The position numbers were made by a program, and so were the translations under genes. A model generated the notes under the pieces. It was not told where the DNA came from. It did not search any database and was given only the letters and a program-made list of their open reading frames with translations. Below, in pieces: positions 6,201 to 28,712 of a DNA stretch of 28,733 nt (position 1 is the first letter of the stretch; each line of letters opens with the position of its first letter). Origin of the DNA: a virus (lineage: Duplodnaviria > Caudoviricetes); the IMG/VR virus record IMGVR_UViG_3300031519_010894, positions 1-28,733 of that record, one strand, 5' to 3'.

Positions 6201-6749
6201 ATGCCAAAAGGAGTAGACTATGATGCTAGATGCAGAAAGTATCGAGCAAGATTAACGCGCAACGGGTGTGTTTATCACTTAGGTTATTTCGCAAAAGAAG
6301 AAGATGCCATAAAAGCTAGGTTAGATGCGGAACGCCAACACAATCGTGGTTCTAAGATCAAGTATCTTCATAGTTACTCAACTTCTTCCCTTCCCGTCGA
6401 AGTAGAAAATGATTCATATCTATACTTCCTATCCTTCAGCGGCGATAATCAACCAGAAAATCCTGAGAGGAGCTTAAGACTGGCCGTACTTGTTCAAGCA
6501 ATAAAAGATGCATTAACAAGCAAAAGACCAGAGGATCAAAAAAATGCGCGACTCTGGTTTAGAGGAAAAATAAAGAGTGAACCTACTTATTCGTTCGTAG
6601 AGATATGTGAGGTGCTAGGGTTAAGCCCGAACTTTGTACAGCGAGGGATGAAAAAGGCCAACCGGAATAAAAAGAAAACTCTTCAATCACTAGGGAGAAG
6701 ACTCGTTAGATCCACAAGGCCGGTGAGTGAGCAAAATGAACAAGGATGA
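6201..6749 (+). CDS. AP2-like DNA-binding domain fused to paralog 2 of the helical family
   Basis: N-terminal KGV.Y...KYRARL...YHLGYF..EEDAIKAR..AE is the AP2-like motif of phage HNH-AP2 proteins. C-terminal PERSLRLAVLVQAIKD...ARLWF...YSFVEICEVLG. Confidence 0.8.
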   Translation: MPKGVDYDARCRKYRARLTRNGCVYHLGYFAKEEDAIKARLDAERQHNRGSKIKYLHSYSTSSLPVEVENDSYLYFLSFSGDNQPENPERSLRLAVLVQAIKDALTSKRPEDQKNARLWFRGKIKSEPTYSFVEICEVLGLSPNFVQRGMKKANRNKKKTLQSLGRRLVRSTRPVSEQNEQG

Positions 6750-7224
6750 TCTAATCAAAGGGTTCGTAGACGGCAACTCTGACGTAGGCCAGTACGCCTC
6801 CAAGAATAAAATCTCGGCCCACAAGCTTCGCAAGATGGGCCGAGAAGTCTTGGGGGAAAAGGGCTGGATAGATGCGGTCACTTCAAAGAAGAAGAAGCAG
6901 TCTCAGTATGTCCTAGGTCGATCCTTCGAGTACAGGACCAGGGACATCTTTGAGAAAGCTGGCTATTTTGTTTTTCGGTCCGCGCAGTCCAGGGGGGTTG
7001 CAGATTTAATAGCCTTCAAGAAGGGTGAGGTTTTATTCATTCAGTGCAAGCGAAGCGGGGGCATAGATAGGGCGGAAGTTAATAAGCTTTTGAATCAATG
7101 TATAGAGATTGGGGTAACCCCACTTCTCGCCGAAAGACCAGACGGCAGGGAAACCAAACTATACGAAATTCATCGGGAAAACGGCAAGATAAAAAAAGAG
7201 CTATTCGAAATTAAGGATCAATAA
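6736..7224 (+). CDS. Hjc-like (archaeal-type) Holliday junction resolvase with N-terminal extension
   Basis: GRSFEY...GYFVFRSAQSRGVADLIAFKKGEVLFIQCK matches the Hjc PD-(D/E)XK pattern. The start could also be 6727. Confidence 0.8.
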   Translation: MNKDDLIKGFVDGNSDVGQYASKNKISAHKLRKMGREVLGEKGWIDAVTSKKKKQSQYVLGRSFEYRTRDIFEKAGYFVFRSAQSRGVADLIAFKKGEVLFIQCKRSGGIDRAEVNKLLNQCIEIGVTPLLAERPDGRETKLYEIHRENGKIKKELFEIKDQ

Positions 7225-7828
7225 GGAAAATCGCACAGTCTTCTATCTCGCCCCTGCTCCAAGTCCATACCCCAGCATCGGCGTAAAGCTTCCTTGCTTC
7301 TCTGTACTCCGCCACGGGCATTGAGCATTTTTTGATTTGTCTTTGGTAGAATATTTTTAAGTTGTTCGGTAGTTGCTCGTAGCTAGGCCAGTTGCTCTCC
7401 ATGCACATGTCGGTGATCAAGACTGGGACGTTTGCATTCTCCAAGCAGATATTGAAGAGCATCCTGTGGTCAAAGTGCCCATATTCTCCAATTGGGTTAT
7501 GAGAGAATATGTAGTCTGTTTTTATTTCAGCCACTCTCGTCGCGATGTCGGAGTATACGTCGGCAAGAAGGGGAGGGTTGGCCTGCCTGGATGGGGTTTT
7601 GTAGAACCCGGAGTTGTAATCAATGCAGGTGAGTTGGACATTATATCTTTGGCAAAGCTCCTGAAGTGGCTCCTTCCTCCTTCTACACCATTCCCTTTCA
7701 GGATTGTTAGCATCGGTAGAGCACATTATTATTTTGACATCGTAGCTATCGTCAAAGAATATCGGCCAACCCCAAAGTATCTCATCGTCGGGGTGTGCCA
7801 TCACCATTGTAATCGACTTATTGCTCAT
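7211..7828 (-). CDS. PIG-L/LmbE family N-deacetylase
   Basis: Metal-binding motifs AHPDDE and HNPIGEYGHFDH. Confidence 0.88.
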   Translation of the reverse strand: MSNKSITMVMAHPDDEILWGWPIFFDDSYDVKIIMCSTDANNPEREWCRRRKEPLQELCQRYNVQLTCIDYNSGFYKTPSRQANPPLLADVYSDIATRVAEIKTDYIFSHNPIGEYGHFDHRMLFNICLENANVPVLITDMCMESNWPSYEQLPNNLKIFYQRQIKKCSMPVAEYREARKLYADAGVWTWSRGEIEDCAIFLIDP

Positions 7829-8321
7829 CTATAATTTTCCTAACCTCGGTCATTGCATCACTCCAGCTACCATTGAATATTATATATTTTATTTTAAGCT
7901 CATTTAGCAAATCAATTGTTTCCGAATACAAATTTAAATAAGACGGGCCATATTCTTGACCTGCAGAGAAGTCATCAATTAGCAAATCAACATCTAATCC
8001 AGAAAGGAATCTAGGCTTTTCAATTGAACTCTTAACTATATTAATAGAGTCAAATTTAAATTTGTGAAAATTTAGCCAGTCTTCAGTTATGCTAAATGCA
8101 TCTTCAAAGTTTCTAGCTGATAGTATGTGGACCTCAGACTTTTCTGATATTTCACTTATCGACTCTACCGAATAAGGGAGTGGTTCATCCTTCATTATTT
8201 CCGCCCTAGTAAAAGCACTGGGGTGAATTGAATTTCCGGGAAACTTTGGCAGTGCCCATTTTTGGATTCTTATCCAGTGGTTGTTAAGCGTACTGTCTAA
8301 ATCAACATATACTTTTTTCAT
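7818..8321 (-). CDS. HAD-superfamily phosphatase (5'(3')-deoxyribonucleotidase-like)
   Basis: Motif I VYVDLDSTL, motif II ILSAR, motif III Lys (IEKP) and motif IV LIDD. Confidence 0.82.
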   Translation of the reverse strand: MKKVYVDLDSTLNNHWIRIQKWALPKFPGNSIHPSAFTRAEIMKDEPLPYSVESISEISEKSEVHILSARNFEDAFSITEDWLNFHKFKFDSINIVKSSIEKPRFLSGLDVDLLIDDFSAGQEYGPSYLNLYSETIDLLNELKIKYIIFNGSWSDAMTEVRKIIDEQ

Positions 8322-9312
8322 ATTGTTCCTTAAGGGAGGAATAAGCCATGTCGAAAACCTTTTCCTTATTTAGCCAAATATTATAGTACACGGGAATTTC
8401 TTTTCTTAGGAGCTTCTCCTCTTCTTGAAGAAACTTAACAAGGTCCGGGTAGCTTGGGTTGTAAAAAGGAGGATCCCAATCTGAGTACCCAGTAGAGTAA
8501 CCCGGCTGCACTTCTAGGAAATATGGGTTAAGGTCTTTGTCCATTATTACATCGACCCCTTGATGATTTAGCCCCAAGCTTCCAACTGAATCTACTATCA
8601 TATCGTGATAGTTTTCGCAGAACTCTTGGCACATCTTGTTCCAGTATATGAACTCCTCGCGCATATCAGGGCGGAACTTGCCGGTGATTGCGACCCATTC
8701 ATCTCGACTTGAAATCCTTGCGTATCCGCAAATTACCTTGGATCCAGCGACTATGATCCTGAATGAGTGATTGTACTTTCGACCAGAGATAGTGTCAATC
8801 AGCTTCACGCACATGGCGCGAGTCCCCGGTGTGGATACCGAAGGATTGTTCTTTAAACCCAAACAGTCATTTGCCGCTCGAAGGGCGCCGTTGTTTTCCA
8901 GAACTAACCAAGAACCCTTCCCTGTATTTTCGTTGTTCACCCGGATAAGATAGGGCGGCTCAATTCCCGAGATTGAAAGTTTTTTCTCGAACTCGTCCAG
9001 CGAATCAAACGCGAACGAGTCGGGGCAGGGTATACCACATTCCTTCCATTTTGAGAAAGCGGCATCTTTTGCATGGGAATACTTGAAAGCTGAAGGCTTG
9101 TTGACATTAAATCTGAAGCTTGATTCCCGAACGGCAATAATTTTCGCAGTATCCTCACTTGTAAATTCGGTATTTGGGCGCCAGAAACAAACATCTGCAC
9201 TTGGCAGATCTTTAATCTTTTGGAATTCTCGTAAATTGCCAAAGTGCTTTTCAAGCATCTGACGCTCGAATACTCTCCACCGAACACCGTCATTAGCGTA
9301 ACTAACTACCAT
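8302..9312 (-). CDS. ATP-grasp ligase (RimK/GshB-like), paralog B
   Basis: K...F..W...GIPCP, PYLIRVNNENTGKG, FRIIVAG and SLGLNHQGVDVIMD...YFLEVQ. Confidence 0.78.
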   Translation of the reverse strand: MVVSYANDGVRWRVFERQMLEKHFGNLREFQKIKDLPSADVCFWRPNTEFTSEDTAKIIAVRESSFRFNVNKPSAFKYSHAKDAAFSKWKECGIPCPDSFAFDSLDEFEKKLSISGIEPPYLIRVNNENTGKGSWLVLENNGALRAANDCLGLKNNPSVSTPGTRAMCVKLIDTISGRKYNHSFRIIVAGSKVICGYARISSRDEWVAITGKFRPDMREEFIYWNKMCQEFCENYHDMIVDSVGSLGLNHQGVDVIMDKDLNPYFLEVQPGYSTGYSDWDPPFYNPSYPDLVKFLQEEEKLLRKEIPVYYNIWLNKEKVFDMAYSSLKEQYEKSIC

Positions 9313-10174
9313 CGGATAGCTCCTTTGCGAATTCTACGTACTGAGAATTATCCCCTGAATATGTAAAGAACTGATAATATGGGCTGTTAGAGTTTAGACC
9401 ATATAGTTGCCAGCGACTAGCAATCTCGTATGGAACTTCAGACTTGGGGATAGTTATTGCTGGGGACTTCAAATCGCCGACTATTGAATCCTGAAATATC
9501 TCACAAAGGATAGACGAGTTAGATTCTATTCTATATGCGAGATCTTCTAAATCAAATACACGAACCCTATCTAACAGATCTTTAAATACCAAGGGGGACG
9601 CGGTTGTTAGGGTCTGGTTAAGGTTCGAATATTCTAGATGCAAGCCTAAGTTTAGGACGGAAAAATTGCGACCGCCGCCTAGCAAGCTTTCGAACCCTCG
9701 GCGAATACCAACAATTGCTATCCCGGGCAGTCCGCCCAGTTGCTTGTTGCTGCAGCTAATAAAAATCTTAGCTTCGCTTGGTATAGGGTAATAAGGGAAA
9801 GAGCTTACGCAGTCGCAAATATCCCCTCCCGAATAATAGGTAGAGGAAGAGGTTTCGAGAGTGCAAGCAAGTTTGAGAACCTCCCCCGATGAAGATGAAT
9901 TTTTTAGTGGATTTTCTCTCAGGGCTATTTCAGCCCATCTCTTGTGGAACTTGCCCTTGGGAGGGATTACTTCTATCCGTCTACGGGTAGAGGCTATGGA
10001 TGCTTCAATCCCGAGGGTGGCACTTCCAGGGATTAGCGCAATATTGAAGTCTGCGAGTTTGAATTTTTCAGAAAGCTCGGTTTTCAAATCGCGATAAGTA
10101 TTTATAAACTGCGTATCGCGATGAGAATAAGATACCTCATGGTTTATTTTTATATCTGGATTTGGACCAAACAT
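9302..10174 (-). CDS. PLP-dependent class-V aminotransferase-like protein (PhnW/AGT-like, short)
   Basis: FGP, SHR..F, GSATLGIEA, ETSS, DCVSS and SCSNKQLGGLPG with the Schiff-base Lys. Confidence 0.8.
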   Translation of the reverse strand: MFGPNPDIKINHEVSYSHRDTQFINTYRDLKTELSEKFKLADFNIALIPGSATLGIEASIASTRRRIEVIPPKGKFHKRWAEIALRENPLKNSSSSGEVLKLACTLETSSSTYYSGGDICDCVSSFPYYPIPSEAKIFISCSNKQLGGLPGIAIVGIRRGFESLLGGGRNFSVLNLGLHLEYSNLNQTLTTASPLVFKDLLDRVRVFDLEDLAYRIESNSSILCEIFQDSIVGDLKSPAITIPKSEVPYEIASRWQLYGLNSNSPYYQFFTYSGDNSQYVEFAKELSDGS

Positions 10175-11135
10175 CGTACCGCTTTCTCAGGGCTTCATAA
10201 GCAATATTAAAGTGGGCTTCCTTGTCGAGCCAGTTGTCGTAGTACTCAGGGATTTCACGGTACAAGTCGTTTTTCTCGTTAACCAGCCAGTCAACAAGCT
10301 CTTTGGGCTTGTATGGGTTCCAGAATGGCGGGGTGGTCCGGTTGGTGTCTCCGCAGAAGTAGAAAGGTTGCACCTCAATAAAGTATAAATTTTCCTCTGA
10401 GTCTAATATTAGATCTACGCCTTGGTGATCTAAGCCAAGAGAAGATACGGCCCTGCATATCTCGTCGTTATTATCTTTGACTATTCTTTGTATTCGCTTA
10501 TTTTCCTGAAGCCAAATGCTTTTGTGGGACTCTTTAAATTTGGCTGTTATAGCTAGCCAGCTGTCGCCAATTCTAGCATATGCACTAACCACCTTGTCCC
10601 CAGCAACTGCAATACGATATGAAATATGACGGCCTTCTCTTCTGGTGTCCACGAATTGCACAGCGAACATTCTAGGTGTGTAGCCTCCTCGACTCATTCT
10701 ATCGGAAATCAACTTCGGCAAACACAACTCCAAATCGGCATCAGATTCTATAAGGTAAGTTCCTTCGCCCGTTGCTAGGTTGTTTAGCCGAATCAGGTAT
10801 GGGAACTCTAATCCAGATTCTTCTATTTGTTCTCGACTAGCGAATTCTACAAATTTAGGGTGCGGTATGCTGTTTGATTTCCAGTTACCAAAACACTCAA
10901 GCTTGCAAGCGGTATAAGGAAATCCATCCATTGAGTTCACCACAAAACTCCTTGGGTGCATTCTTTTTTCTTCTGATAAATATTGAAGGGACTGACTTAG
11001 CGTTATTCCCTCGGTGTTGTTTCTTATTATAAGGACATCGCCCCCAGATAAAATATTTTCTCCAAAATTTTTAACGCAAGCCTGAAGTTCGCCAGGCCTC
11101 CAGTACGGATTATTACCAATGGTCGAGAAGCTCAT
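10137..11135 (-). CDS. ATP-grasp ligase (RimK/GshB-like), paralog A
   Basis: FPYLIRLNNLATGEG, YRIAVAG and SLGLDHQGVDLILD...YFIEVQ. ATG 11135 forms an ATGA overlap with the upstream stop. Confidence 0.78.
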   Translation of the reverse strand: MSFSTIGNNPYWRPGELQACVKNFGENILSGGDVLIIRNNTEGITLSQSLQYLSEEKRMHPRSFVVNSMDGFPYTACKLECFGNWKSNSIPHPKFVEFASREQIEESGLEFPYLIRLNNLATGEGTYLIESDADLELCLPKLISDRMSRGGYTPRMFAVQFVDTRREGRHISYRIAVAGDKVVSAYARIGDSWLAITAKFKESHKSIWLQENKRIQRIVKDNNDEICRAVSSLGLDHQGVDLILDSEENLYFIEVQPFYFCGDTNRTTPPFWNPYKPKELVDWLVNEKNDLYREIPEYYDNWLDKEAHFNIAYEALRKRYDVWSKSRYKNKP

Positions 11136-11872
11136 TTTAATTCTCGCTCCCACCATAGTTTAACTTCTGGGTGTCCTGCATGCACGGCGATAGGCGTTTC
11201 GCACTTAACTTCGCTCCTGCAGACAAGCCAGTTTTCGCACAATGCATATGGGCTAGTTTTTTTACGCCAAATAGCTCTAGCTAAAGATGCTTGCCCCCTG
11301 CTGGGCATAAATTCTTGTTCATCAATAATGCAATCTAGAAAAGAACTAGACTTACTATTGTAGAAAATTACCCCCATATTTAAAGCTGTCATCCCCCTAG
11401 GCATCTCCCTAAGCGCACCAAGGTCCATTGGTCCCACATCAGCGCCAATGTCCAAGTCCCCCATGGGGGAGGCCGTGCGATCGTCGGTAGGAGCAAAAAT
11501 AAATCTGCGCGGGTTCTGTGCCATAGCGATGCCAAAATTTTCCGCTATGTCAAAACCGTTATTAATAAACCTGTTAACTACATAAACATCGTTGTCTAGG
11601 TATAGGGTGTTTCGGAATGCGGATTTTTTAAGGGCGTGCAGCCTGAAGAGGCTGCTGTTCCTGTTCCCCCTTCTCTCATCAAAATTAACAGTTTTGTACT
11701 TTGTCACATGGTCTTGACCTAGGTCGGGTATATCGATGTCGGACCAGACATTTATATCTATATCGCCTATGTATTTTCGGACACTGGATATAGAGTTTCC
11801 CAAATGTCCATTGTCCAAGTCTCTGCTTCCACAAAGGACATATACGACACCTCTGGATTTATGCGCCGTCAT
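11132..11872 (-). CDS. GT-A fold glycosyltransferase-like protein (GT8 / nucleotide-diphospho-sugar transferase-like)
   Basis: RGVVYV, SISSVRK, TLYLDND (DxD), LNMGVIFY, GQASL and a C-terminal VH. AAGGAG RBS before ATG 11872. Confidence 0.7.
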   Translation of the reverse strand: MTAHKSRGVVYVLCGSRDLDNGHLGNSISSVRKYIGDIDINVWSDIDIPDLGQDHVTKYKTVNFDERRGNRNSSLFRLHALKKSAFRNTLYLDNDVYVVNRFINNGFDIAENFGIAMAQNPRRFIFAPTDDRTASPMGDLDIGADVGPMDLGALREMPRGMTALNMGVIFYNSKSSSFLDCIIDEQEFMPSRGQASLARAIWRKKTSPYALCENWLVCRSEVKCETPIAVHAGHPEVKLWWERELK

Positions 11873-12905
11873 CAGTGACTCCTTTAAATAAATATAGGTA
11901 ATCGAGAGACCGGCGCCGCCATGTCCAGTTTTCTTCAATTTCCTTACGGGCCGCTTTGCCCATCTCGGATACAAGATCGTCGGAATGAGCCAACTTAGAA
12001 AGGAAGCCGCAAATCTCCTTTACCGAAGTTTTAGCTTCTAACTCAGTTTGCCATCCGCTAGCAATAAATCCATTTTCCCCATGAGTGATCAGCTCTTCAA
12101 TGCAGCCATTTACCGTACTAACTACGGGGACTCCGCAGGCGCTTGCCTCGAAGGCTGGGTTAGGTGTTCCCTCAGAGTACTTGTGGCTTGTGCTGAGGTA
12201 AACATCTAGACCATTGTAAAACTCCCGCATTTCGTCTTGGGATTTTAGCGAATTGGTATCCATGGAATTTACGCGATGAACCACAAATTCGATATCTTCT
12301 CCTGAAAGATTGAGCATTACTTTTTTTAGTACCGCATCGAATCCTTTAAAATCTATAGTATGGCCACTGGCCTTGTTTCGGATCGAGCCCACCCAGCCCA
12401 CACGTAGCTTTTTAGATTTTCGGTCAGTTGATTTTTCTATGCAGAATTTATTTTCATCTACTCCGTTCATGCACAGCGCGGGGGAATCCACCCCCCAGGT
12501 TTTTAGCTGCTTCCAGAGGGAGGGCGAAACTGCCCCCGATCTCTTATAGGCCCTTGCGGTATTAGGTACATTTGCCCAGGCGGAATGCATGAATTGCCAA
12601 CTTGTGAGAGTAGATACTACGTTAGTAAGCTCGCTCGCGTGTATGGGTTGCAATGTACAGCCGAAGTTCATTGGCTTATCCCCCGAAAAATCAATAAGAT
12701 AATAAAAAAATCCAAGGAATAAAGCCACGTCGTATTGATGAAGCTCTCGAATGCCATTGCTCTCTGCGGCCTTACTAAATTCTTTATGGTATCTAATCTC
12801 GGTATCAAAATTAATTAAATTTTGCTTAAGGGCAGCTGCCTTATGGGCGTATGCCCATCCTGGGAAATCTACTAAAATCATAAGCGATTTATTTGAGCAT
12901 GTCAT
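11859..12905 (-). CDS. Glycosyltransferase family 4 (GT-B)
   Basis: NGVD...F, VGWVG, KG, and the EX7E signature EGTPNPAFEASACGVPVVST, followed by ENGF and C-terminal WTW. Confidence 0.92.
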   Translation of the reverse strand: MTCSNKSLMILVDFPGWAYAHKAAALKQNLINFDTEIRYHKEFSKAAESNGIRELHQYDVALFLGFFYYLIDFSGDKPMNFGCTLQPIHASELTNVVSTLTSWQFMHSAWANVPNTARAYKRSGAVSPSLWKQLKTWGVDSPALCMNGVDENKFCIEKSTDRKSKKLRVGWVGSIRNKASGHTIDFKGFDAVLKKVMLNLSGEDIEFVVHRVNSMDTNSLKSQDEMREFYNGLDVYLSTSHKYSEGTPNPAFEASACGVPVVSTVNGCIEELITHGENGFIASGWQTELEAKTSVKEICGFLSKLAHSDDLVSEMGKAARKEIEENWTWRRRSLDYLYLFKGVTDDGA

Positions 12906-13100
12906 AATTTAAAGTTTTCTTTTCTTTCAAATTGGCTAAGCTTCGATCATTAACTTTATCACAAAAAAAATAATAGAGACACCCGTGCAGGAAGTCTTCA
13001 GGCGGCCACTCCCCAAAAAAACAAAGACAATCGTTTGAACCAAGAAAGCAATCGTGAAACACTCCCCTATCTCGGGAAAAGCAACAGAGGGGGGCAGGGC

Positions 13101-13883
13101 ATGGCGAATGGGGCTAGATTGCTTGACGAATGGGCGAATCCGCAGTTTCTTGCGGCTCCCCGCAAGAGTAGGGATTTGTATTTCTTCCTGCTGACCGCGA
13201 CTCCACCAGCCGCACCCATGGGCCTTATCTGGTGCCAAGGGGACAAGGGGCTGCCAAGCCTCGCTCGAAAGGCCCAGATTTCGATCCCGACCGACATCTT
13301 GGCGCTAGAGAAGATCGGATTCGCAAAGCACGATGCCAAGGCGGGACTGATTTTTCTCAATCGAGCAGTGCGCCGGGGATTCATCCAGAGCTATTCTTTG
13401 CGCAATGTCAACTCTTGGAAAAAGAGATTCGCTGCAATCCCGAATTCTCCCCTAAAGGAAGAATGGCGAACCGAGATTGTAAATGCCTCAACCGAATATC
13501 CTAAGAATATCGCTGCTAAAATCCAGCAGCTATTCGCCAGCGAGCAAGAGCTAGGGGGCGCTTCGAATGGGAAGTCCCCGCAAGCTGTTGAGATAGTTCG
13601 ATATTTTGCGGACACTTTTGCGGAGAAGGGCTATGGCACCTATGTGGCAAATTGGGGCAAGGAAGTCCAAGTAGCAAAAGAGATTCTCGGGGTTATTGGG
13701 TTCGAGGATATTAAGATGCGGATAGATTTATACTTCAAAGATGAGTGGCTTTCACAGATGGCCTCATTGGACTTTATGTCATTTAGGAGAAATATAAATA
13801 AATTCGCAAAAAGCGCAAGTTCTATGCCAACTAAGAAGGACCTTGAGGGGTATTGGGCTATTGTTAACAAGGGTGAAAAATGA
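13101..13883 (+). CDS. Putative phage replication initiator / replisome organiser
   Basis: N-terminal W.NPQF...LYFFLLT...GL wHTH-like pattern and a helical C-terminal domain. It lies directly upstream of the primase-helicase with an ATGA overlap. Confidence 0.55.
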   Translation: MANGARLLDEWANPQFLAAPRKSRDLYFFLLTATPPAAPMGLIWCQGDKGLPSLARKAQISIPTDILALEKIGFAKHDAKAGLIFLNRAVRRGFIQSYSLRNVNSWKKRFAAIPNSPLKEEWRTEIVNASTEYPKNIAAKIQQLFASEQELGGASNGKSPQAVEIVRYFADTFAEKGYGTYVANWGKEVQVAKEILGVIGFEDIKMRIDLYFKDEWLSQMASLDFMSFRRNINKFAKSASSMPTKKDLEGYWAIVNKGEK

Positions 13884-16220: not shown

Positions 16221-16601
16221 ATGCAAGAGCTAGAAAAAAAAGATAAAGATAAAGAGAAGAAAAAGCCTTTACCAAAGTGGAAGCAGGGCTTTAATATAGT
16301 CTACTCCGCCGATGAGCATTGCGCCGCCCACAGGGCCCCATACAATCCGGCGAAAAAGCCTGAGCTTTCCATAAGGAGCGCGGTATTGGCAAATGCACTC
16401 GGCGACTTTGCCTTAGGGGAAGGGAAGGCTTACGTTGAAGCCCTTAGCTGGCTTAAGGGGGATTCTAAGTCGATGCCTGGTTATAGCTTCATCGACATAT
16501 GTGACGCTTTCGGGATATCATCCGATGCCGCAAGGGAATCTATATTAAAAGAGACACATGGGCGTGCCCGTCTTAAGAACATAGTAGGAAGGTATAACTA
16601 G
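16221..16601 (+). CDS. Hypothetical protein, paralog 3 of the helical family
   Basis: PELSIRSAVLANALGD...ALSWL...YSFIDICDAFG aligns with the C-terminal half of 6201..6749. Confidence 0.8.
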   Translation: MQELEKKDKDKEKKKPLPKWKQGFNIVYSADEHCAAHRAPYNPAKKPELSIRSAVLANALGDFALGEGKAYVEALSWLKGDSKSMPGYSFIDICDAFGISSDAARESILKETHGRARLKNIVGRYN

Positions 16602-16930
16602 TGCCGGATTCAAGGAACACCGAATATTATAAGAAAATTCAAAGTAAGCATGGTGAAGATTATTCAGATATGCAAAACAAGATTGCAGAAAAATGCGACA
16701 GCATAAAGGCCCTCTTAATAGATAAAAATAAAAAGTATGGGAACAGCGCAACTTCCCCTTTGAGAATTTTCAGCAACGGAGGCCCGATAGAGGGGCTCTT
16801 GGTGAGGTGTGACGATAAGCTTTCGCGGATAAAAACTACGGGGCTGAAGGATTCAGGAGAGGACCAAGTGATTGACCTCATAGGGTACCTCGTCTTAATA
16901 TCGATACAAACAGATTCAGAAACAAAATAA
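16601..16930 (+). CDS. Nucleotide modification associated domain 1 (Nmad1/DUF1599-like) protein
   Basis: Signature KNKKYGNS...VRCDDKLSRI...D.VIDLIGY. Confidence 0.75.
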   Translation: MPDSRNTEYYKKIQSKHGEDYSDMQNKIAEKCDSIKALLIDKNKKYGNSATSPLRIFSNGGPIEGLLVRCDDKLSRIKTTGLKDSGEDQVIDLIGYLVLISIQTDSETK

Positions 16931-17019: not shown

Positions 17020-18948
17020 ATGGTAAGCAGCATTCTTTCAGAAAAGTTTTTAGGCGGTTATTCGCAGAAGTCTCCACCCTTTGGGGGTAATGGCCTTGGG
17101 TATTTGGTCTACAAAAGAACATACGCAAGGGAGATAGAAGAACTTGGCATTAAGGAGGAATGGTGGCAGACCGTTGCGCGGTGCGTAGAGGGCGCTCAGG
17201 CAATTGGGGCGGACTACTCCCAAGCGGAAGCTGAGCGGCTTTACGATTATGTTTTTAATCTAAAAGGCTCTTTCTCGGGAAGGGCGCTTTGGCAACTCGG
17301 TACCAACATGATCGATAAGTTCGGCGGGCCATCGCTCCTCAACTGTTATTTCACAAATATCGAGGATATAAAAGACTTTGAATTTCTCATGACGCACCTC
17401 ATGTTAGGGGGCGGCGTCGGCTTTTCGGTTGAGCGGTCAAGTATACACTCATTTAAAAAAATTAAAACCGCCGTTGTTATTAATCATAAGAAAACTAATG
17501 ACGCTGATTTCATTGTCCCTGACAGCAGGCAGGGATGGGCTGCATTATTGAGCAAGGTATTAACGGCGTTCTTCGAGACAGGGGACTCCTTCTCTTACTC
17601 CACGATTCTGATTCGCGGCAAGGGCGCAACCCTCAAAACATTCGGGGGAACGGCGAGTGGGCCTGAGGTTCTCATTGAAGGCATTGATGATATTTGCGGA
17701 ATATTAGCAATGCGAGAAGGTAAGAAAATTCGGTCCATTGATGCTCTTGATATCTGCAATGTAATTGGGAAAATTGTTGTTGCTGGTTCGGCAAGACGCT
17801 CCGCGCAGATAGCGGCAGGGGACCCGGATGACTATCTGTTTTTGCGGGCTAAGCGTTGGGACAAAGGTAATATTCCTGCGTACAGAGCCAATAGCAATAA
17901 CTCAATTCTGGCAGACAGCTTTGATGAGATTATTGAAGAAGTATGGAATGGCTACATGGGGAATGGGGAACCTTACGGTCTCCTCAACCGAAAGCTAGCA
18001 CGGCAGTACGGTCGCCTCGGGGAGAAGGTGAACGATTCGAAAGTAATAGGCACAAACCCGTGCAGCGAAATTTGGTTGGAGGATGGAGAGAACTGTAATC
18101 TGTCCGAAATATTCTTGCCTAGGGTTGAATCCAGAGAAGAACTTTATGACCTGAGCAAACTTCTTTACAAGACACAGAAAGCCATTACCTCACTGCATTT
18201 CCCGTTCGCAAAGACCAGGGAGACAAGTTATCGAAACCGAAGACTTGGGCTTGGCATAACTGGGTGGCTGCAGTCTTCCAAATCACAGATTGGCTGGCTT
18301 GATGGATGCTACAAGAGCCTCAGGAAGTTCGATGAATCTTGGTCCAAGAAAAAAGGAATAAATAAATCAATCAAGCTCACGACAGTTAAGCCCTCAGGCA
18401 CGCTTAGCCTTTTGCCATTTGTTACCCCGGGGATCCACCCGGGTTATTCTAGGTACTTTATCCGGCGAGTTAGGATTGGCTCCCATGACCCGCTAGTAAA
18501 CATCTGCAGAGAACTAGGGTATCCCGTTAAGTTTGACCGAGGAATTGATGGGCGAGAGAACCCCTTGCTCTGCGTAGTAGAGTTCCCATGCGAGTATCCA
18601 GAGGGAACAGTTTTAGCAAGCAGCCTTACGGCAATTGATCAATTGGAGTGGGTGGTAAAAGCTCAAACTCTCTGGAGCGACAATGCAGTAAGCGTAACTG
18701 TTTACTACAAAAAAGAAGAACTACCCGGTATCAAAGATTGGTTAAAGGAGAACTATGGCAAGAAGGTTAAATCCGTATCCTTCTTGCTCCATGCGGACCA
18801 TGGGTTCGAGATGGCACCATATGAGCCCATATCAAAGGAGGAGTACGAGAAGCTAAAGAGCAAAATTACGCCCATAAGCAGAGTTGATGAAGTTGGCGAG
18901 GATGATTTGGGAGTAGAGTGCGATGGCGGGGCATGTCCAATCAAGTAG
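17020..18948 (+). CDS. nrdJ: Class II (adenosylcobalamin-dependent) ribonucleotide reductase
   Basis: VYKRTYAR, GRALW, LLNC, GGGVG, RRSA, NPCSE, TTVKPSGT and C-terminal CDGGAC. No beta-subunit gene is adjacent. Confidence 0.93.
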   Translation: MVSSILSEKFLGGYSQKSPPFGGNGLGYLVYKRTYAREIEELGIKEEWWQTVARCVEGAQAIGADYSQAEAERLYDYVFNLKGSFSGRALWQLGTNMIDKFGGPSLLNCYFTNIEDIKDFEFLMTHLMLGGGVGFSVERSSIHSFKKIKTAVVINHKKTNDADFIVPDSRQGWAALLSKVLTAFFETGDSFSYSTILIRGKGATLKTFGGTASGPEVLIEGIDDICGILAMREGKKIRSIDALDICNVIGKIVVAGSARRSAQIAAGDPDDYLFLRAKRWDKGNIPAYRANSNNSILADSFDEIIEEVWNGYMGNGEPYGLLNRKLARQYGRLGEKVNDSKVIGTNPCSEIWLEDGENCNLSEIFLPRVESREELYDLSKLLYKTQKAITSLHFPFAKTRETSYRNRRLGLGITGWLQSSKSQIGWLDGCYKSLRKFDESWSKKKGINKSIKLTTVKPSGTLSLLPFVTPGIHPGYSRYFIRRVRIGSHDPLVNICRELGYPVKFDRGIDGRENPLLCVVEFPCEYPEGTVLASSLTAIDQLEWVVKAQTLWSDNAVSVTVYYKKEELPGIKDWLKENYGKKVKSVSFLLHADHGFEMAPYEPISKEEYEKLKSKITPISRVDEVGEDDLGVECDGGACPIK

Positions 18949-20428
18949 CGAAATAGCGCTAATAAGAGATTTAGCATTTGCAATTAGCGAATGTGATAAG
19001 ATACTATTAATTGATGATAACAACAATGGCAAATTCTGCAACAGCATCGATACGGCAGTCGGGGACGAACTATGCTTTGCTGTCCGACCACATGCCGGTG
19101 TGGTTACTCTGGATTTTGACGAGCCTGGGGATCTCAATTTAGTCTTTGATGAAATTGTTAGTTATATTAGGGGCTTGGGGGGCAGGCCGGTCATTGTTGC
19201 TAGCGGCACTGTCGGGCATCTCCACTTGTTTTGCAGGATAGATGACGAAGAAATACAAACAGACATAAGAGACTTCCTATCATCCAAGGGTGTTTCTAGA
19301 TGGCTAAGGGTTAATACTTTCATAAGACCCCCATTGTCTCCGCATAGGGCAGGCTTACCAGTATCCCTGGTTGAGCCAGGATCTCCCCAGAGAGCATTAG
19401 CGCTCTTAGGGAAGTCTATTATAAAAAAAGATTTACCTAGTGATATGCTTATGAAAATTAAGTATGGACTATTAAATCAAAATCAATACAGCAGCGGATC
19501 GGAGCTGACGCAAGCCATAGTAAACTCGTGCTATCTAAGCGGCTATACTCTCGAGGAAATTTTCGAACTTTTATCAAGGTCTGAGAATAGAGGTGGGAAC
19601 TCGCTTAAGAAGAGGATAAAGGAGCGAGGGCATTCAAGGGCTATGGGGTGGCTGTCCTTAAGTTATGATAAGGCCAGCAGGTTTATAACTGCAAACAATT
19701 TGGAAGAGATTAGAAAATGGTCTTCTTCTATATGTGATCAGATATCCAGATTAGAAATAAATGGCAGGAGAAAGATATCGCTAATAAAAATCTTCATGGC
19801 GCACATAGACGTTGCCAGTCGGGCACGATCTTACAAGTACAACGCTAGCGTTAGGCAGTTGGCGGTTGCCTCCTCCGTTAGCTCCATTGTCACAGTGAGC
19901 AGAGCGAACAAGCAGCTTCAGGAACTCGGGATAGTGAAACGGATCACGGTGGGTCGAGAAAAGGTCGCTAGCTCTTGGGAGCTATCCTGCTCAAAAGGTG
20001 GCCTACGTGATACACTAGGTTCACCTTGTAGTACAAGCAATAACCATGAGGGGTGTGGGTATGATGTATCATCAGGGATACATTTTGATCACGATGCCTT
20101 CAGATACTCCTACGGGAGCAAGAGGGGGCTTGGGGCAGCCGCCGCTATTATTTTGGGGTGCCTGTTACAGTCAGATGGGGTCAGGGTCGCGCAGGTTTGC
20201 CGCCTAACGGGACTTTGCCGCAGCACGGTGGTCAGGGGGCTGAACCGGATGGAGGGCTTCTCCTTGGCCAAATCTGAGGGGTTCCTGTGGACAGCGGCGT
20301 CTGGGAATATCGATGCTCGCCTCGACCGAGTTGCGGAAGAGTTGGGCTTGCTAGGGGCCAGTGCCAATCAGAGCGAGAAGTATCGTGAGGAGCGTGAAAA
20401 TTACTTGGCTAGGTATTCTCTGCGATAA
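18923..20428 (+). CDS. Putative prim-pol (AEP-like) replication protein with helical and HTH domains
   Basis: TLDFD (DxD) and ASGTVGHLHLF (SG..GHxH), a helical SGSE...GYTLEEI segment, and two HTH-like segments (SVRQLA...TVSRANKQL and VAQVCRLTGLCRSTVVRGL). Confidence 0.6.
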   Translation: MAGHVQSSSEIALIRDLAFAISECDKILLIDDNNNGKFCNSIDTAVGDELCFAVRPHAGVVTLDFDEPGDLNLVFDEIVSYIRGLGGRPVIVASGTVGHLHLFCRIDDEEIQTDIRDFLSSKGVSRWLRVNTFIRPPLSPHRAGLPVSLVEPGSPQRALALLGKSIIKKDLPSDMLMKIKYGLLNQNQYSSGSELTQAIVNSCYLSGYTLEEIFELLSRSENRGGNSLKKRIKERGHSRAMGWLSLSYDKASRFITANNLEEIRKWSSSICDQISRLEINGRRKISLIKIFMAHIDVASRARSYKYNASVRQLAVASSVSSIVTVSRANKQLQELGIVKRITVGREKVASSWELSCSKGGLRDTLGSPCSTSNNHEGCGYDVSSGIHFDHDAFRYSYGSKRGLGAAAAIILGCLLQSDGVRVAQVCRLTGLCRSTVVRGLNRMEGFSLAKSEGFLWTAASGNIDARLDRVAEELGLLGASANQSEKYREERENYLARYSLR

Positions 20429-27181: not shown

Positions 27182-28414
27182 ATGGCTTCAGAAAAAAATG
27201 TAATTATTCGTGGCGGCGAAGACGAAAATCTTCACACCATGATGGAGGTCCTTGAGGGGATTTCCGCTCGTACTAAGGAACTGGGCGATGTAGGTAGTGA
27301 TGTTGACGATCTCAAAGGGGCTATTGAGCGTCTTTCGGCTCGTTGTGACCAGCTTGATAAAGAGCTGCCCCAAGGGCAGAAGGTGTTCGCGGCGGAGACT
27401 CCGGGCAAAGATTCGGCCCTTCGTGAGTTTGGCAGCACAATTTCTAGCGCATGGCGGCTCAAGCACTACGGTCGTGCGGGCGGAGCTGCTGGTAACGATG
27501 GCGATGCGACCACCGGGGGCGGCGTCCTTGTGCCGCAGATCACCTATGACAAGGTTGCTCGCATTGTAGAGGAGGCTTCGATCATTCGTAACATTGCTAC
27601 GATTGTGCCGATGTCCTCCAACACGATGGTGATGCCAACCCGATCCAGTGGGCCTTCCGTTTCTTGGCTCGCTGATCAGGGCGCTGCGCAGGCGACCAAA
27701 ACTTCGGTCGTGTTCGACAACCCGACGCTTTCCAGCAAAACGCTGATGGCGATTGACGAAGTTTCGGCTGAGCTGGACGAAGATTCCATTGTTGCCCTTG
27801 AGCCCTTCTTCGCTCAGATGTTTGCGGAAGCGGTTGGTAAGGAAGAGAACAAGCAGGCTTTCAATTCTTCTTCTCCCTTCACTGGCGTTGCCTCTGACAG
27901 CAACATTACCTCCGTCGAGTTTGGCAACGATGGCCAGGCCTTTGGCAGCGTTTCTCACTCTGACCTTGTTAACCTGCAGTATACCGCAGATCCCAAGGTT
28001 ATCCACAAAGGAACCTTCATCATGCACCCTGATGCTTTTAAAGAGTGTGTGAACTTGAAGGACTCCAACGGTCGCCCGATCTATGCTTCGGCATGGTACG
28101 GTGGTGGCCCGGCTACGGGCGCAGCTCAGCCCAACGAGCCGGTCTCGCAGCAGGCGCAGGCTTCGATCCTCTTGGGTCGCCCTGCTTACCTGACGGAGAC
28201 AATGCCGACTAGCGCAGCGAGCGCAATTTTCGCTGTGTTCGGCGACTTCAGCAAGTTTGCCTTCGGTGATCGCAAGCAGATGACCATTGATTGGTCGGAT
28301 CAGGTTTACTATGAGCATGGTAACCTGGCGCTTCGTGTCCGTGAGCGTATCGCAATGAAGACCCTGATTACAGGGGCCTTCTCGCGACTGGCTGTCGGTA
28401 ACGGCGGCAACTAA
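27182..28414 (+). CDS. Major capsid protein, HK97 fold
   Basis: Coiled-coil N-terminal delta domain, GGVLVP, VSAELDEDS, LKDSNGRPIY, ILLGRP, FGDFS and R.RER. AAAGGA RBS and strong codon bias. Confidence 0.96.
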   Translation: MASEKNVIIRGGEDENLHTMMEVLEGISARTKELGDVGSDVDDLKGAIERLSARCDQLDKELPQGQKVFAAETPGKDSALREFGSTISSAWRLKHYGRAGGAAGNDGDATTGGGVLVPQITYDKVARIVEEASIIRNIATIVPMSSNTMVMPTRSSGPSVSWLADQGAAQATKTSVVFDNPTLSSKTLMAIDEVSAELDEDSIVALEPFFAQMFAEAVGKEENKQAFNSSSPFTGVASDSNITSVEFGNDGQAFGSVSHSDLVNLQYTADPKVIHKGTFIMHPDAFKECVNLKDSNGRPIYASAWYGGGPATGAAQPNEPVSQQAQASILLGRPAYLTETMPTSAASAIFAVFGDFSKFAFGDRKQMTIDWSDQVYYEHGNLALRVRERIAMKTLITGAFSRLAVGNGGN

Positions 28415-28517: not shown

Positions 28518-28712
28518 ATGAGAGTTAAATTAAAAGAGAAGCTAGATACTTCAATTGGCCCTAGGGAAATTGGGGAGGTAGACTTGCCGAAGGAGGAAGC
28601 TCTTAGCTTAATCCGCGACAACAAGGCGAGCTTGGCATCGCCCCCGGGGCGCTTTCTCGCTGGGGGGCGTGGTGTCCTGGACCGAATGCTGAAGACAATC
28701 TTGACTCGATAG
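28518..28712 (+). CDS. Small head-module protein (64 aa)
   Basis: The pattern MRVKL...GEVDLPKEEALSLIRDNKA resembles small genes that follow HK97-type capsid genes. Confidence 0.6.
   Translation: MRVKLKEKLDTSIGPREIGEVDLPKEEALSLIRDNKASLASPPGRFLAGGRGVLDRMLKTILTR

Follow-up and report, generated by a model that had tools for sequence, protein, structure and literature searches.

A modular phage gene cassette that may amidate acidic sugars, possibly on a glycan of the phage particle

The capsule of Campylobacter jejuni carries ethanolamine and serinol amides whose proven source is a three-enzyme route. According to the accessible part of the published account (PMC11800397), Cj1436 decarboxylates phosphoserine and Cj1437 transaminates dihydroxyacetone phosphate, Cj1438C couples the amine phosphate to the carboxyl group of glucuronate after this sugar has been built into the chain, and the phosphate is then taken off by Cj1435. 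The accessible text on the HS:2 capsule assigns the addition of glucuronic acid to Cj1432N, a GT4 glycosyltransferase (PMC11800397, PMC11800379). Here we describe a seven-gene cassette in a 28.7-kb piece of a tailed-phage genome, IMG/VR record IMGVR_UViG_3300031519_010894, which is about 39% complete; the whole stretch of 28,733 nucleotides is called the window below. Three of the seven genes, encoding an ATP-grasp ligase (ligase B), a class V pyridoxal phosphate (PLP) enzyme and a HAD phosphatase, form a core triad. We propose that this triad joins a small amino-alcohol in amide linkage to the carboxyl of an acidic sugar, and that this sugar probably belongs to a glycan on the virion; to this reading we give a probability of about 0.45. 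The chemistry taken by itself, formation of a sugar-acid amide, we regard as probable.

The case begins with the constancy of the triad. A ligase B profile retrieved 94 loci (12 viral, 80 metagenomic and 2 genomic, the last from GTDB genomes); scans of viral contigs with the single sequences of ligase B and the PLP enzyme gave no matches, and profiles were required. Excluding the window's own record (L013), and dropping 60 of the 93 others for having less than 3 kb on one flank, leaves 33 well-flanked loci, all collected via the ligase, which dereplication at 90% reduces to 22 groups. Ligase B, the class V PLP enzyme and the HAD phosphatase occur together in 33/33 loci and 22/22 groups, always on the same strand and spanning 2.1-3.8 kb. 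A GT-A fold glycosyltransferase and a PIG-L family de-N-acetylase are both present in 11 loci and both absent from 22 (dereplicated, 8 and 14 of 22 groups), a second ligase (ligase A) occurs in 3/33, and the window's GT4 subtype in a single locus (1/33; 1/22 groups). These counts resolve the cassette into a core of three genes, GT-A and PIG-L as a pair, a second ligase that is optional and a GT4 that varies. An earlier note, made from the letters of the window, had proposed a coupled operon for sugar modification, and had named as the contrary outcome scattered parts with no conserved co-occurrence in phages; what is found is a triad kept in every locus and every group. (A locus of record G011, L010 / L174, has seven in-frame TGA codons in its ligase match and 20% GC, and probably belongs to a TGA-recoding phage.)

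The same counts bear on the logic that the earlier note had placed at the core, that of mycothiol and bacillithiol, in which the GT4 would make an N-acetylglucosamine conjugate, the HAD phosphatase and PIG-L would unmask it, and both ligases would aminoacylate the freed amine to give a soluble metabolite or a peptidyl amino-sugar. All of these enzyme types are present in the window, and ligase A is found only alongside ligase B and, flanks allowing, GT-A and PIG-L. However, PIG-L is missing from 22/33 triad loci and the GT4 from 32/33, 8 of the 11 PIG-L loci hold a single ligase, PIG-L follows GT-A and not GT4, the HAD can be fused to the ligase, and scores lie far below the cut-offs for MshA (26.9 of 462.5 bits), MshB (12.1 of 224.35) and BshA (40.1 of 273.7). 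Such a pathway now looks very improbable, and as the logic of the core it is not supported. The part that survives, a ligase acting on the amine freed by PIG-L, could apply to ligase A, which has a ligase B copy and, where the contig extends far enough, GT-A and PIG-L alongside, and not to ligase B.

The seven-gene cassette is an inserted, modular gene set. Its open reading frames (ORFs) all lie on the minus strand (7211..12905) and overlap, with likely starts, by 14, 4, 38, 11, 20 and 11 bp in order, in agreement with the order and the 4-38 bp first noted; the likely start of GT-A is the ATG at 11872, preceded by AAGGAG, and that of ligase A the ATG at 11135. In three close relatives (L145, L146 and L147), with primase-helicases 74-77% identical to that of the window, the cassette is absent and the resolvase gene directly abuts the right-flank gene, which makes the cassette an accessory insertion. 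An independent contig (L014, the closest relative) carries this cassette at the identical site together with two additional genes, which rules out an assembly artefact as the source of the arrangement. Of the two flanks named earlier, the Hjc-type resolvase at left stands; the "replication initiator" at right is unsupported, the gene there being an ORF before the primase-helicase that lacks a family match and has homologues at 45-52% identity in L014 and L145-L147. GC content is 43.6% in the cassette and 47.8% in the remaining window. A search for membrane-type segments in the seven cassette proteins found every 19-residue hydrophobic window at or below 1.26, in line with the earlier note.

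The AlphaFold model of ligase B (predicted local distance difference test score 95) has an ATP-grasp fold, with ArgX (3vpb; Z 21.5, root-mean-square deviation 3.4, 269 aligned residues) as best structural match, and with ArgX, LysX (5k2m) and RimK (4iwx) as nearest solved folds at Z 20-21.5 and only 12-18% identity. A single-sequence search puts the family at 132 proteins and a profile at 145 (90% clustering), and 55 representatives (50% clustering) score below 1e-30; K82, R124, R185, R199, D254, E267 and Q269 are invariant in its alignment. The phage ligase shows E-V-Q where the RimK-type motif is E-x-N, and the two window ligases reach only 21.1 and 25.2 bits against the TIGR00768 (RimK) cut-off of 143.4 bits. 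The HAD phosphatase is NT5C-like (PF06941, E 6e-4, below the cut-off) and keeps the invariant motif D7-x-D9-x-T11, R70, K102 and D116-D117 in an alignment of 30 sequences; a sequence search of the PDB with it gave no clear match. It is fused behind ligase B in P0009, P0013, P0014 and L092, and five 496-aa family proteins have the length of ligase-HAD fusions, three of the five reading as such. Longer versions of the core genes also occur: PLP proteins of 474-488 aa in L030, L086 and P0121 (the last a PLP-methyltransferase fusion), and HAD proteins of 354-358 aa in L035 and L043.

Profile and fold both place the PLP enzyme in class V of fold type I. The Schiff-base lysine K144, the ring-binding aspartate D121, and H18 and R19 are kept in 120/120 homologues; H18-R19 aligns with H41-R42 of E. 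coli SerC, a site that we take to bind the substrate phosphate. Class V aminotransferases (SerC, PhnW, AGT) hold the alpha-carboxylate of the substrate with an arginine of the last strand, and this arginine is invariant in 30/30 cellular class V enzymes. Column 268 of the phage family, matched in one joint alignment to the arginine of six cellular class V enzymes, contains Q in 97, S in 11, H in 9, a gap in 3 and R in none of the 120 homologues. With the alignment there not secure, the missing carboxylate-anchoring arginine favours a decarboxylase, at slightly better than even odds, over a transaminase, at somewhat under one chance in three, and the protein may thus be a class V decarboxylase. 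A phosphonate role, considered for the weak PhnW/AepZ scores (24 of 360.8 bits), was set aside, there being no phosphoenolpyruvate mutase among the annotated neighbour representatives, which are a subset of the neighbours.

From the genes, folds, intact motifs, modular co-occurrence, ligase-HAD fusions and empty site that are directly seen, we infer substrates, an order of steps and a target. The PLP enzyme would first make an amino-alcohol phosphate, most likely ethanolamine phosphate by decarboxylation of phosphoserine from the host or, as second choice, serinol phosphate by transamination. Ligase B, with ATP, would then activate the carboxylate of a uronic or nonulosonic acid and attach the amine, after which the HAD phosphatase would strip the phosphate from the amide product. 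In a second module GT-A would add an N-acetylhexosamine that PIG-L would deacetylate to a free amine; ligase A could acylate that amine or amidate a second acid, and the GT4 may provide the acid sugar. Support for amidation comes from the constancy of the triad, the ligase-HAD fusions, the C. jejuni precedent, the acid-sugar neighbours, the cellular polysaccharide loci, and the residues and alternative gene partners of the PLP enzyme.

Neighbouring genes were surveyed through annotated representatives of 80 of 325 clusters. They include NAD epimerases, UDP-glucose dehydrogenase, NeuB, CMP-sugar synthetases and Maf/sialyltransferase-like proteins, together with GT2, GT4 and GT77 glycosyltransferases, methyltransferases and 2-oxoglutarate (2OG) oxygenases. 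Acid-sugar genes (UDP-glucose dehydrogenase, NeuB, NeuA or Maf-like) occur in 26/33 loci and 17/22 groups. Six loci look cellular (L048, L050, L051, L055, L062 and L094, one of them from a Marine Group III euryarchaeote bin) and contain the surface-polysaccharide genes Wzx, Wzz, Wzi or a bacterial sugar transferase. Cells seldom carry the ligase family (GTDB genomes gave 2 loci), and the PLP profile matched 1 of 401 genomes of G012's class, namely G012. For the methyltransferase-like neighbour c31 a PDB sequence search gave nothing clear, and the idea that it is a serine kinase found no support there. A gene of about 380 aa precedes the PLP gene in tail-linked cassettes (L031:6828-7964, L097:9642-10784); it lacks a Pfam or PDB match and, inspected by eye, begins like a methyltransferase and has a WDGxHR motif of ParB/Srx-like type.

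Given sugar-acid amide chemistry, gene positions make the virion a quite probable target. In G001, G003 and G004 the cassette lies 3' of a large tail gene, on the same strand, with a Maf-like gene leading, and a further Maf/sialyltransferase-like gene is found two genes past the probable capsid gene in G003 (L099:6458-7111, minus strand) and G001 (L096:9007-9684, plus strand). In L153 and L154, relatives whose capsid protein is 83-89% identical to the window's, genes for GT2, GT4, GT2, GT2, a radical SAM protein and GT32 directly follow the capsid gene (L153:6858-12108, L154:11529-16809). The window has a 64-aa ORF after its capsid gene, whose counterpart in both relatives directly precedes this cluster; the cluster itself would fall beyond the contig end. 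These post-capsid genes are a candidate virion glycosylation cluster, and the HK97-type capsid protein is a candidate glycan carrier. Taken together, the tail- and capsid-linked positions point to a virion glycan.

The same amidation chemistry might instead act on host surface polysaccharide, on O-antigen or capsule repeat units at the cytoplasmic face, and exclude rival phages. The cellular copies do occupy polysaccharide loci, the window cassette is inserted in antisense and has the lower GC content, and the accessible part of PMC7824862 interprets large sugar clusters of phages as modifiers of host O-antigen. Yet the cassette has no membrane protein, flippase or lipid-carrier transferase, it closes the run of tail genes in G001, G003 and G004, Maf-like transferases, which modify protein Ser/Thr according to the accessible text of 10.1101/2020.06.03.131540, are found in many carrier loci, and there is no integrase in the 28.7-kb window (39% of the genome), so that a host-surface target strikes us as unlikely.

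Another way to connect the triad with the particle would dispense with the acid sugar. Ligase B would amidate carboxylates of virion proteins (Glu, Asp or the C-terminus), and the hydroxyl freed by the HAD phosphatase would be extended by variable glycosyltransferases, the triad serving as a glycan anchor. ArgX, LysX and RimK, the nearest solved folds, are in line with it, as are the constant triad amid variable sugar genes, the single GT4 beside the triad in G007, and the 7/33 loci without an acid-sugar gene. We consider it rather unlikely, with the fold likeness standing at 12-18% identity only, with cellular copies in polysaccharide loci of the Wzx/Wzz type, in which a protein acceptor would not be expected, and with no common acidic C-terminal tail, by eye, on the capsid and tail proteins of G001, G003, G007 and the window; moreover, close relatives have capsid-linked glycosyltransferases while three relatives lack the cassette at the site. 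If true, it would mean an undescribed protein-glycosylation linkage, spread among phages and built with an amine maker that other phages use with QueC/DpdA on DNA bases.

Those other phages emerge from a search with the PLP profile, which gave 29 viral loci, 11 with ligase and HAD and 18 without ligase. Thirteen of the 18 ligase-free loci (L159, L160, L165, L166, L168, L169, L175-L180 and L182) pair the PLP gene with both QueC-like and DpdA-like genes, as do 0/11 of the ligase loci within the DNA covered; the name "DpdA-like" stands for one sub-threshold TGT match plus motif likeness. QueC activates the carboxylate of 7-carboxy-7-deazaguanine. The PLP enzyme thus sits with one of two carboxylate-activating ligases, and is probably an amine maker that swaps such partners, which agrees with the earlier suggestion that it supplies an amine. 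The QueC/DpdA-like loci, which often hold FolE, QueD, QueE or ParB-domain genes (L160 and L165 also a small HAD-like ORF), are candidates for making an undescribed amide of 7-carboxy-7-deazaguanine in DNA. A third context of the family comes from a plasmid search, which found one PLP homologue (30.5% identity); it lies in a cluster of Vibrio nigripulchritudo that has no ligase or sugar genes annotated (L113:6886-15554: PqqD, CPBP protease, ABC transporter, methyltransferase, PLP homologue, AAA protein and IspG, beside an acyl-homoserine lactone synthase). Further homologues are P0148 (Vibrio cholerae isolates, 25 contigs) and P0180 (a Marinifilaceae bin). The tree of the PLP family is a quick tree.

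Hypermodification of phage DNA with an amidated sugar or base, as an anti-restriction measure, was among the targets first suggested. It is consistent with the PLP family's presence in 7-deazaguanine clusters of other phages, with several cassettes lying among replication genes, with the window being only 39% of its genome, and with the partial carrier G008, where a weak QueC-like gene lies at about 12 kb from the ligase. (That gene is surrounded by a run of ORFs that by eye resemble 2OG oxygenases, L186:1616-4961.) The base-handle scan weakens it: the complete carriers G001, G003 and G007 have no TET/JBP gene (0/3), no ThyA-type hydroxymethylase (0/3) and no QueC (0/3). Nor do they have a DpdA-like gene by a local profile that found eight loci beyond its seed, and by local profiles with working controls QueC and DpdA-like genes are absent from the window too, where the test of the phage's own genome covers the 39% in the window. 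Described DNA glycosyltransferases accompany a 5mYOX or ThyS gene in the accessible text of bioRxiv 10.1101/2023.12.21.572611, and the copies in cells are placed in polysaccharide loci. G001 and G003 do encode DNA methyltransferases and ParB-domain proteins at other places in the genome, and a base handle of undescribed chemistry may exist. The missing handle genes of three complete carriers, and the pairing with QueC/DpdA only where no ATP-grasp ligase is present, make a DNA target less likely, and we now rate it quite improbable.

A number of points weigh against virion sugar amidation by the triad. The ligase's own 100% is by construction, the loci having been collected with it (the PLP and HAD counts are not so affected). 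No acid-sugar gene is recognised in 7/33 loci, L014 and the complete phage G007 among them, or in the window itself; the host could supply the acid sugar there. Among the replication genes of the window and L014 the cassette runs antisense, against the direction of the structural genes, and G007 has it before the primase. The nearest ligase B folds belong to enzymes acting on protein carboxylates (ArgX, LysX and RimK) rather than to sugar enzymes. The Gln-for-Arg match of the PLP enzyme comes from one joint alignment plus the last-strand position, hhalign and the SerC alignment being unreliable there. The cellular copies must act on surface polysaccharide, and phage DNA may carry acid sugars such as 3-deoxy-D-manno-octulosonic acid (Kdo), according to the accessible part of bioRxiv 10.1101/2023.12.21.572611. 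Promoter and terminator counts at the cassette are within about 1.5 standard deviations of shuffles, with no promoter above chance. Finally, the 50,697 GenBank phage records contain no match to the cassette, i.e. no cultured carrier.

The family assignments first made for all seven genes are borne out, by Pfam (GT4, PIG-L, HAD and ligase A), fold (ligase B), profile plus fold (PLP enzyme) and Atlas (GT-A). The GT4 matches PF13692 at E 1e-13, and its donor is possibly a uronic acid. GT-A resembles GT77/GT8 enzymes (Atlas TM 0.74 to PF03407) and has a DND motif with invariant Asp D95; a PDB sequence search with it gave chance matches only, and it has no detectable kinship to the other GT77-like neighbour, c3. 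PIG-L (PF02585, E 5.5e-8) keeps H12, D14, D15, E16, D120 and H121 invariant in an alignment of 15 sequences. Ligase A is a RimK-like ATP-grasp protein (PF08443, E 1e-5), 38% identical to ligase B and with the same invariant residues; it forms a separate clade of 16 (support 1.0), every member of which stands beside a ligase B copy, and it comes with GT-A and PIG-L wherever the contig extends far enough.

Table 1. Coordinates of the cassette, its flanks and the capsid region in the window
Feature	Position	Strand	Basis
GT4 (GT-B) glycosyltransferase, variable part	11859..12905	-	PF13692/PF00534
GT-A fold glycosyltransferase, GT77/GT8-like, PIG-L partner	11132..11872	-	Atlas features and structure
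ATP-grasp ligase A, accessory paralogue of ligase B	10137..11135	-	PF08443
Short class V PLP enzyme, core	9302..10174	-	Profile and fold
ATP-grasp ligase B, core, RimK/LysX/ArgX-like	8302..9312	-	Fold
HAD phosphatase, core	7818..8321	-	PF06941 (sub-threshold), motifs
PIG-L family de-N-acetylase, GT-A partner	7211..7828	-	PF02585
Hjc-type resolvase, left flank of insertion site	6727..7224	+	PF01870
Right-flank gene, 5' of primase-helicase	13035..13883	+	Without family match
HK97-type major capsid protein	27182..28414	+	PF05065
64-aa ORF after capsid gene	28518..28712	+	54% and 45% identical ORFs in L153 and L154

Elsewhere in the window, genes recognised by family include terminase, portal, HK97 capsid, primase-helicase and ribonucleotide reductase. 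A small phrog_1485 gene lies at 16601-16930 (plus strand), and a member of its family in L089 matches DUF1599, "nucleotide modification associated domain 1". The ribonucleotide reductase gene is followed by one for a 501-aa protein (18923-20428, plus strand) with C-terminal winged-helix matches and no PHROG family, 44-49% identical in close relatives. A 376-codon open frame antisense to the capsid gene (27188-28318, minus strand) probably just shadows the real gene.

Clusters of sugar genes abound in phages, mostly with obscure targets; here a soluble three-enzyme core has concrete candidate substrates and a two-gene module beside it. If the proposed amidation is true, phages tune glycan charge by capsule-type amide chemistry, with a ligase family of their own and possibly a class V decarboxylase. 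An amine maker that serves a glycan ligase in some phages and a DNA-base ligase in others would clearly exemplify modular reuse. The earlier note had not recognised the combination from any described phage system, and our literature search, whose coverage excludes most subscription journals, found no description of the cassette; amidation of this kind would be a chemistry known from a bacterial capsule, and we found no description of it for phages. Work of Iyer et al. in 2009 reportedly treats ATP-grasp ligases in sugar loci and may cover related neighbourhoods.

Set against known systems, the cassette resembles several in part. Mycothiol (MshA/A2/B/C) and bacillithiol (BshA/B/C) synthesis share with the window a GT4, a phosphatase, a PIG-L enzyme and a ligase. 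MshC, however, is Cys-tRNA-ligase-like whereas the phage ligases are ATP-grasp proteins, PIG-L and GT4 lie outside the conserved core, and none of the seven cassette genes has an MshC/BshC-type NCBIfam match at E <= 1. With RimK, LysX and ArgX the phage ligases share the closest solved fold and weak RimK Pfam and TIGR00768 matches, and differ in identity (12-18%), in the E-V-Q motif and in the sugar-pathway neighbours of the phage ligase. The phage 7-deazaguanine DNA modification systems (FolE/QueD/QueE/QueC and DpdA) have the PLP family as neighbour elsewhere, but carriers of the ATP-grasp ligase are without those genes nearby (0/11 loci) and in three complete genomes, and the accessible accounts (PMC6884629, bioRxiv 10.1101/2023.04.13.536721) name no PLP enzyme. 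Glycosylation of mycobacteriophage virions (Freeman et al. 2023 as cited in PMC12619734) likewise uses soluble phage glycosyltransferases, and in relatives of the cassette phage such genes lie among capsid and tail genes; the accessible part of that source mentions no amine-making, ligase, phosphatase or deacetylase step.

The nearest parallel is the uronamide pathway of the C. jejuni HS:2 capsule. There as here a PLP enzyme, an ATP-grasp ligase and a HAD phosphatase are clustered with glycosyltransferases (33/33 phage-type loci); a GT4 gene adjoins the trio in the window, and many relatives hold UDP-glucose dehydrogenase or nonulosonate genes. The enzymes differ in kind. Cj1436 and Cj1437 are class I/II PLP enzymes, whereas the phage enzyme is a short class V protein; the window ligases are RimK/ArgX-like, with no TupA Pfam match at E <= 0.05, whereas Cj1438C is TupA-like in the accessible text of PMC11800379. 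The cassette is also mostly phage-borne, and adds GT-A and PIG-L and a second ligase. It likely works like the C. jejuni pathway without being a member of it.

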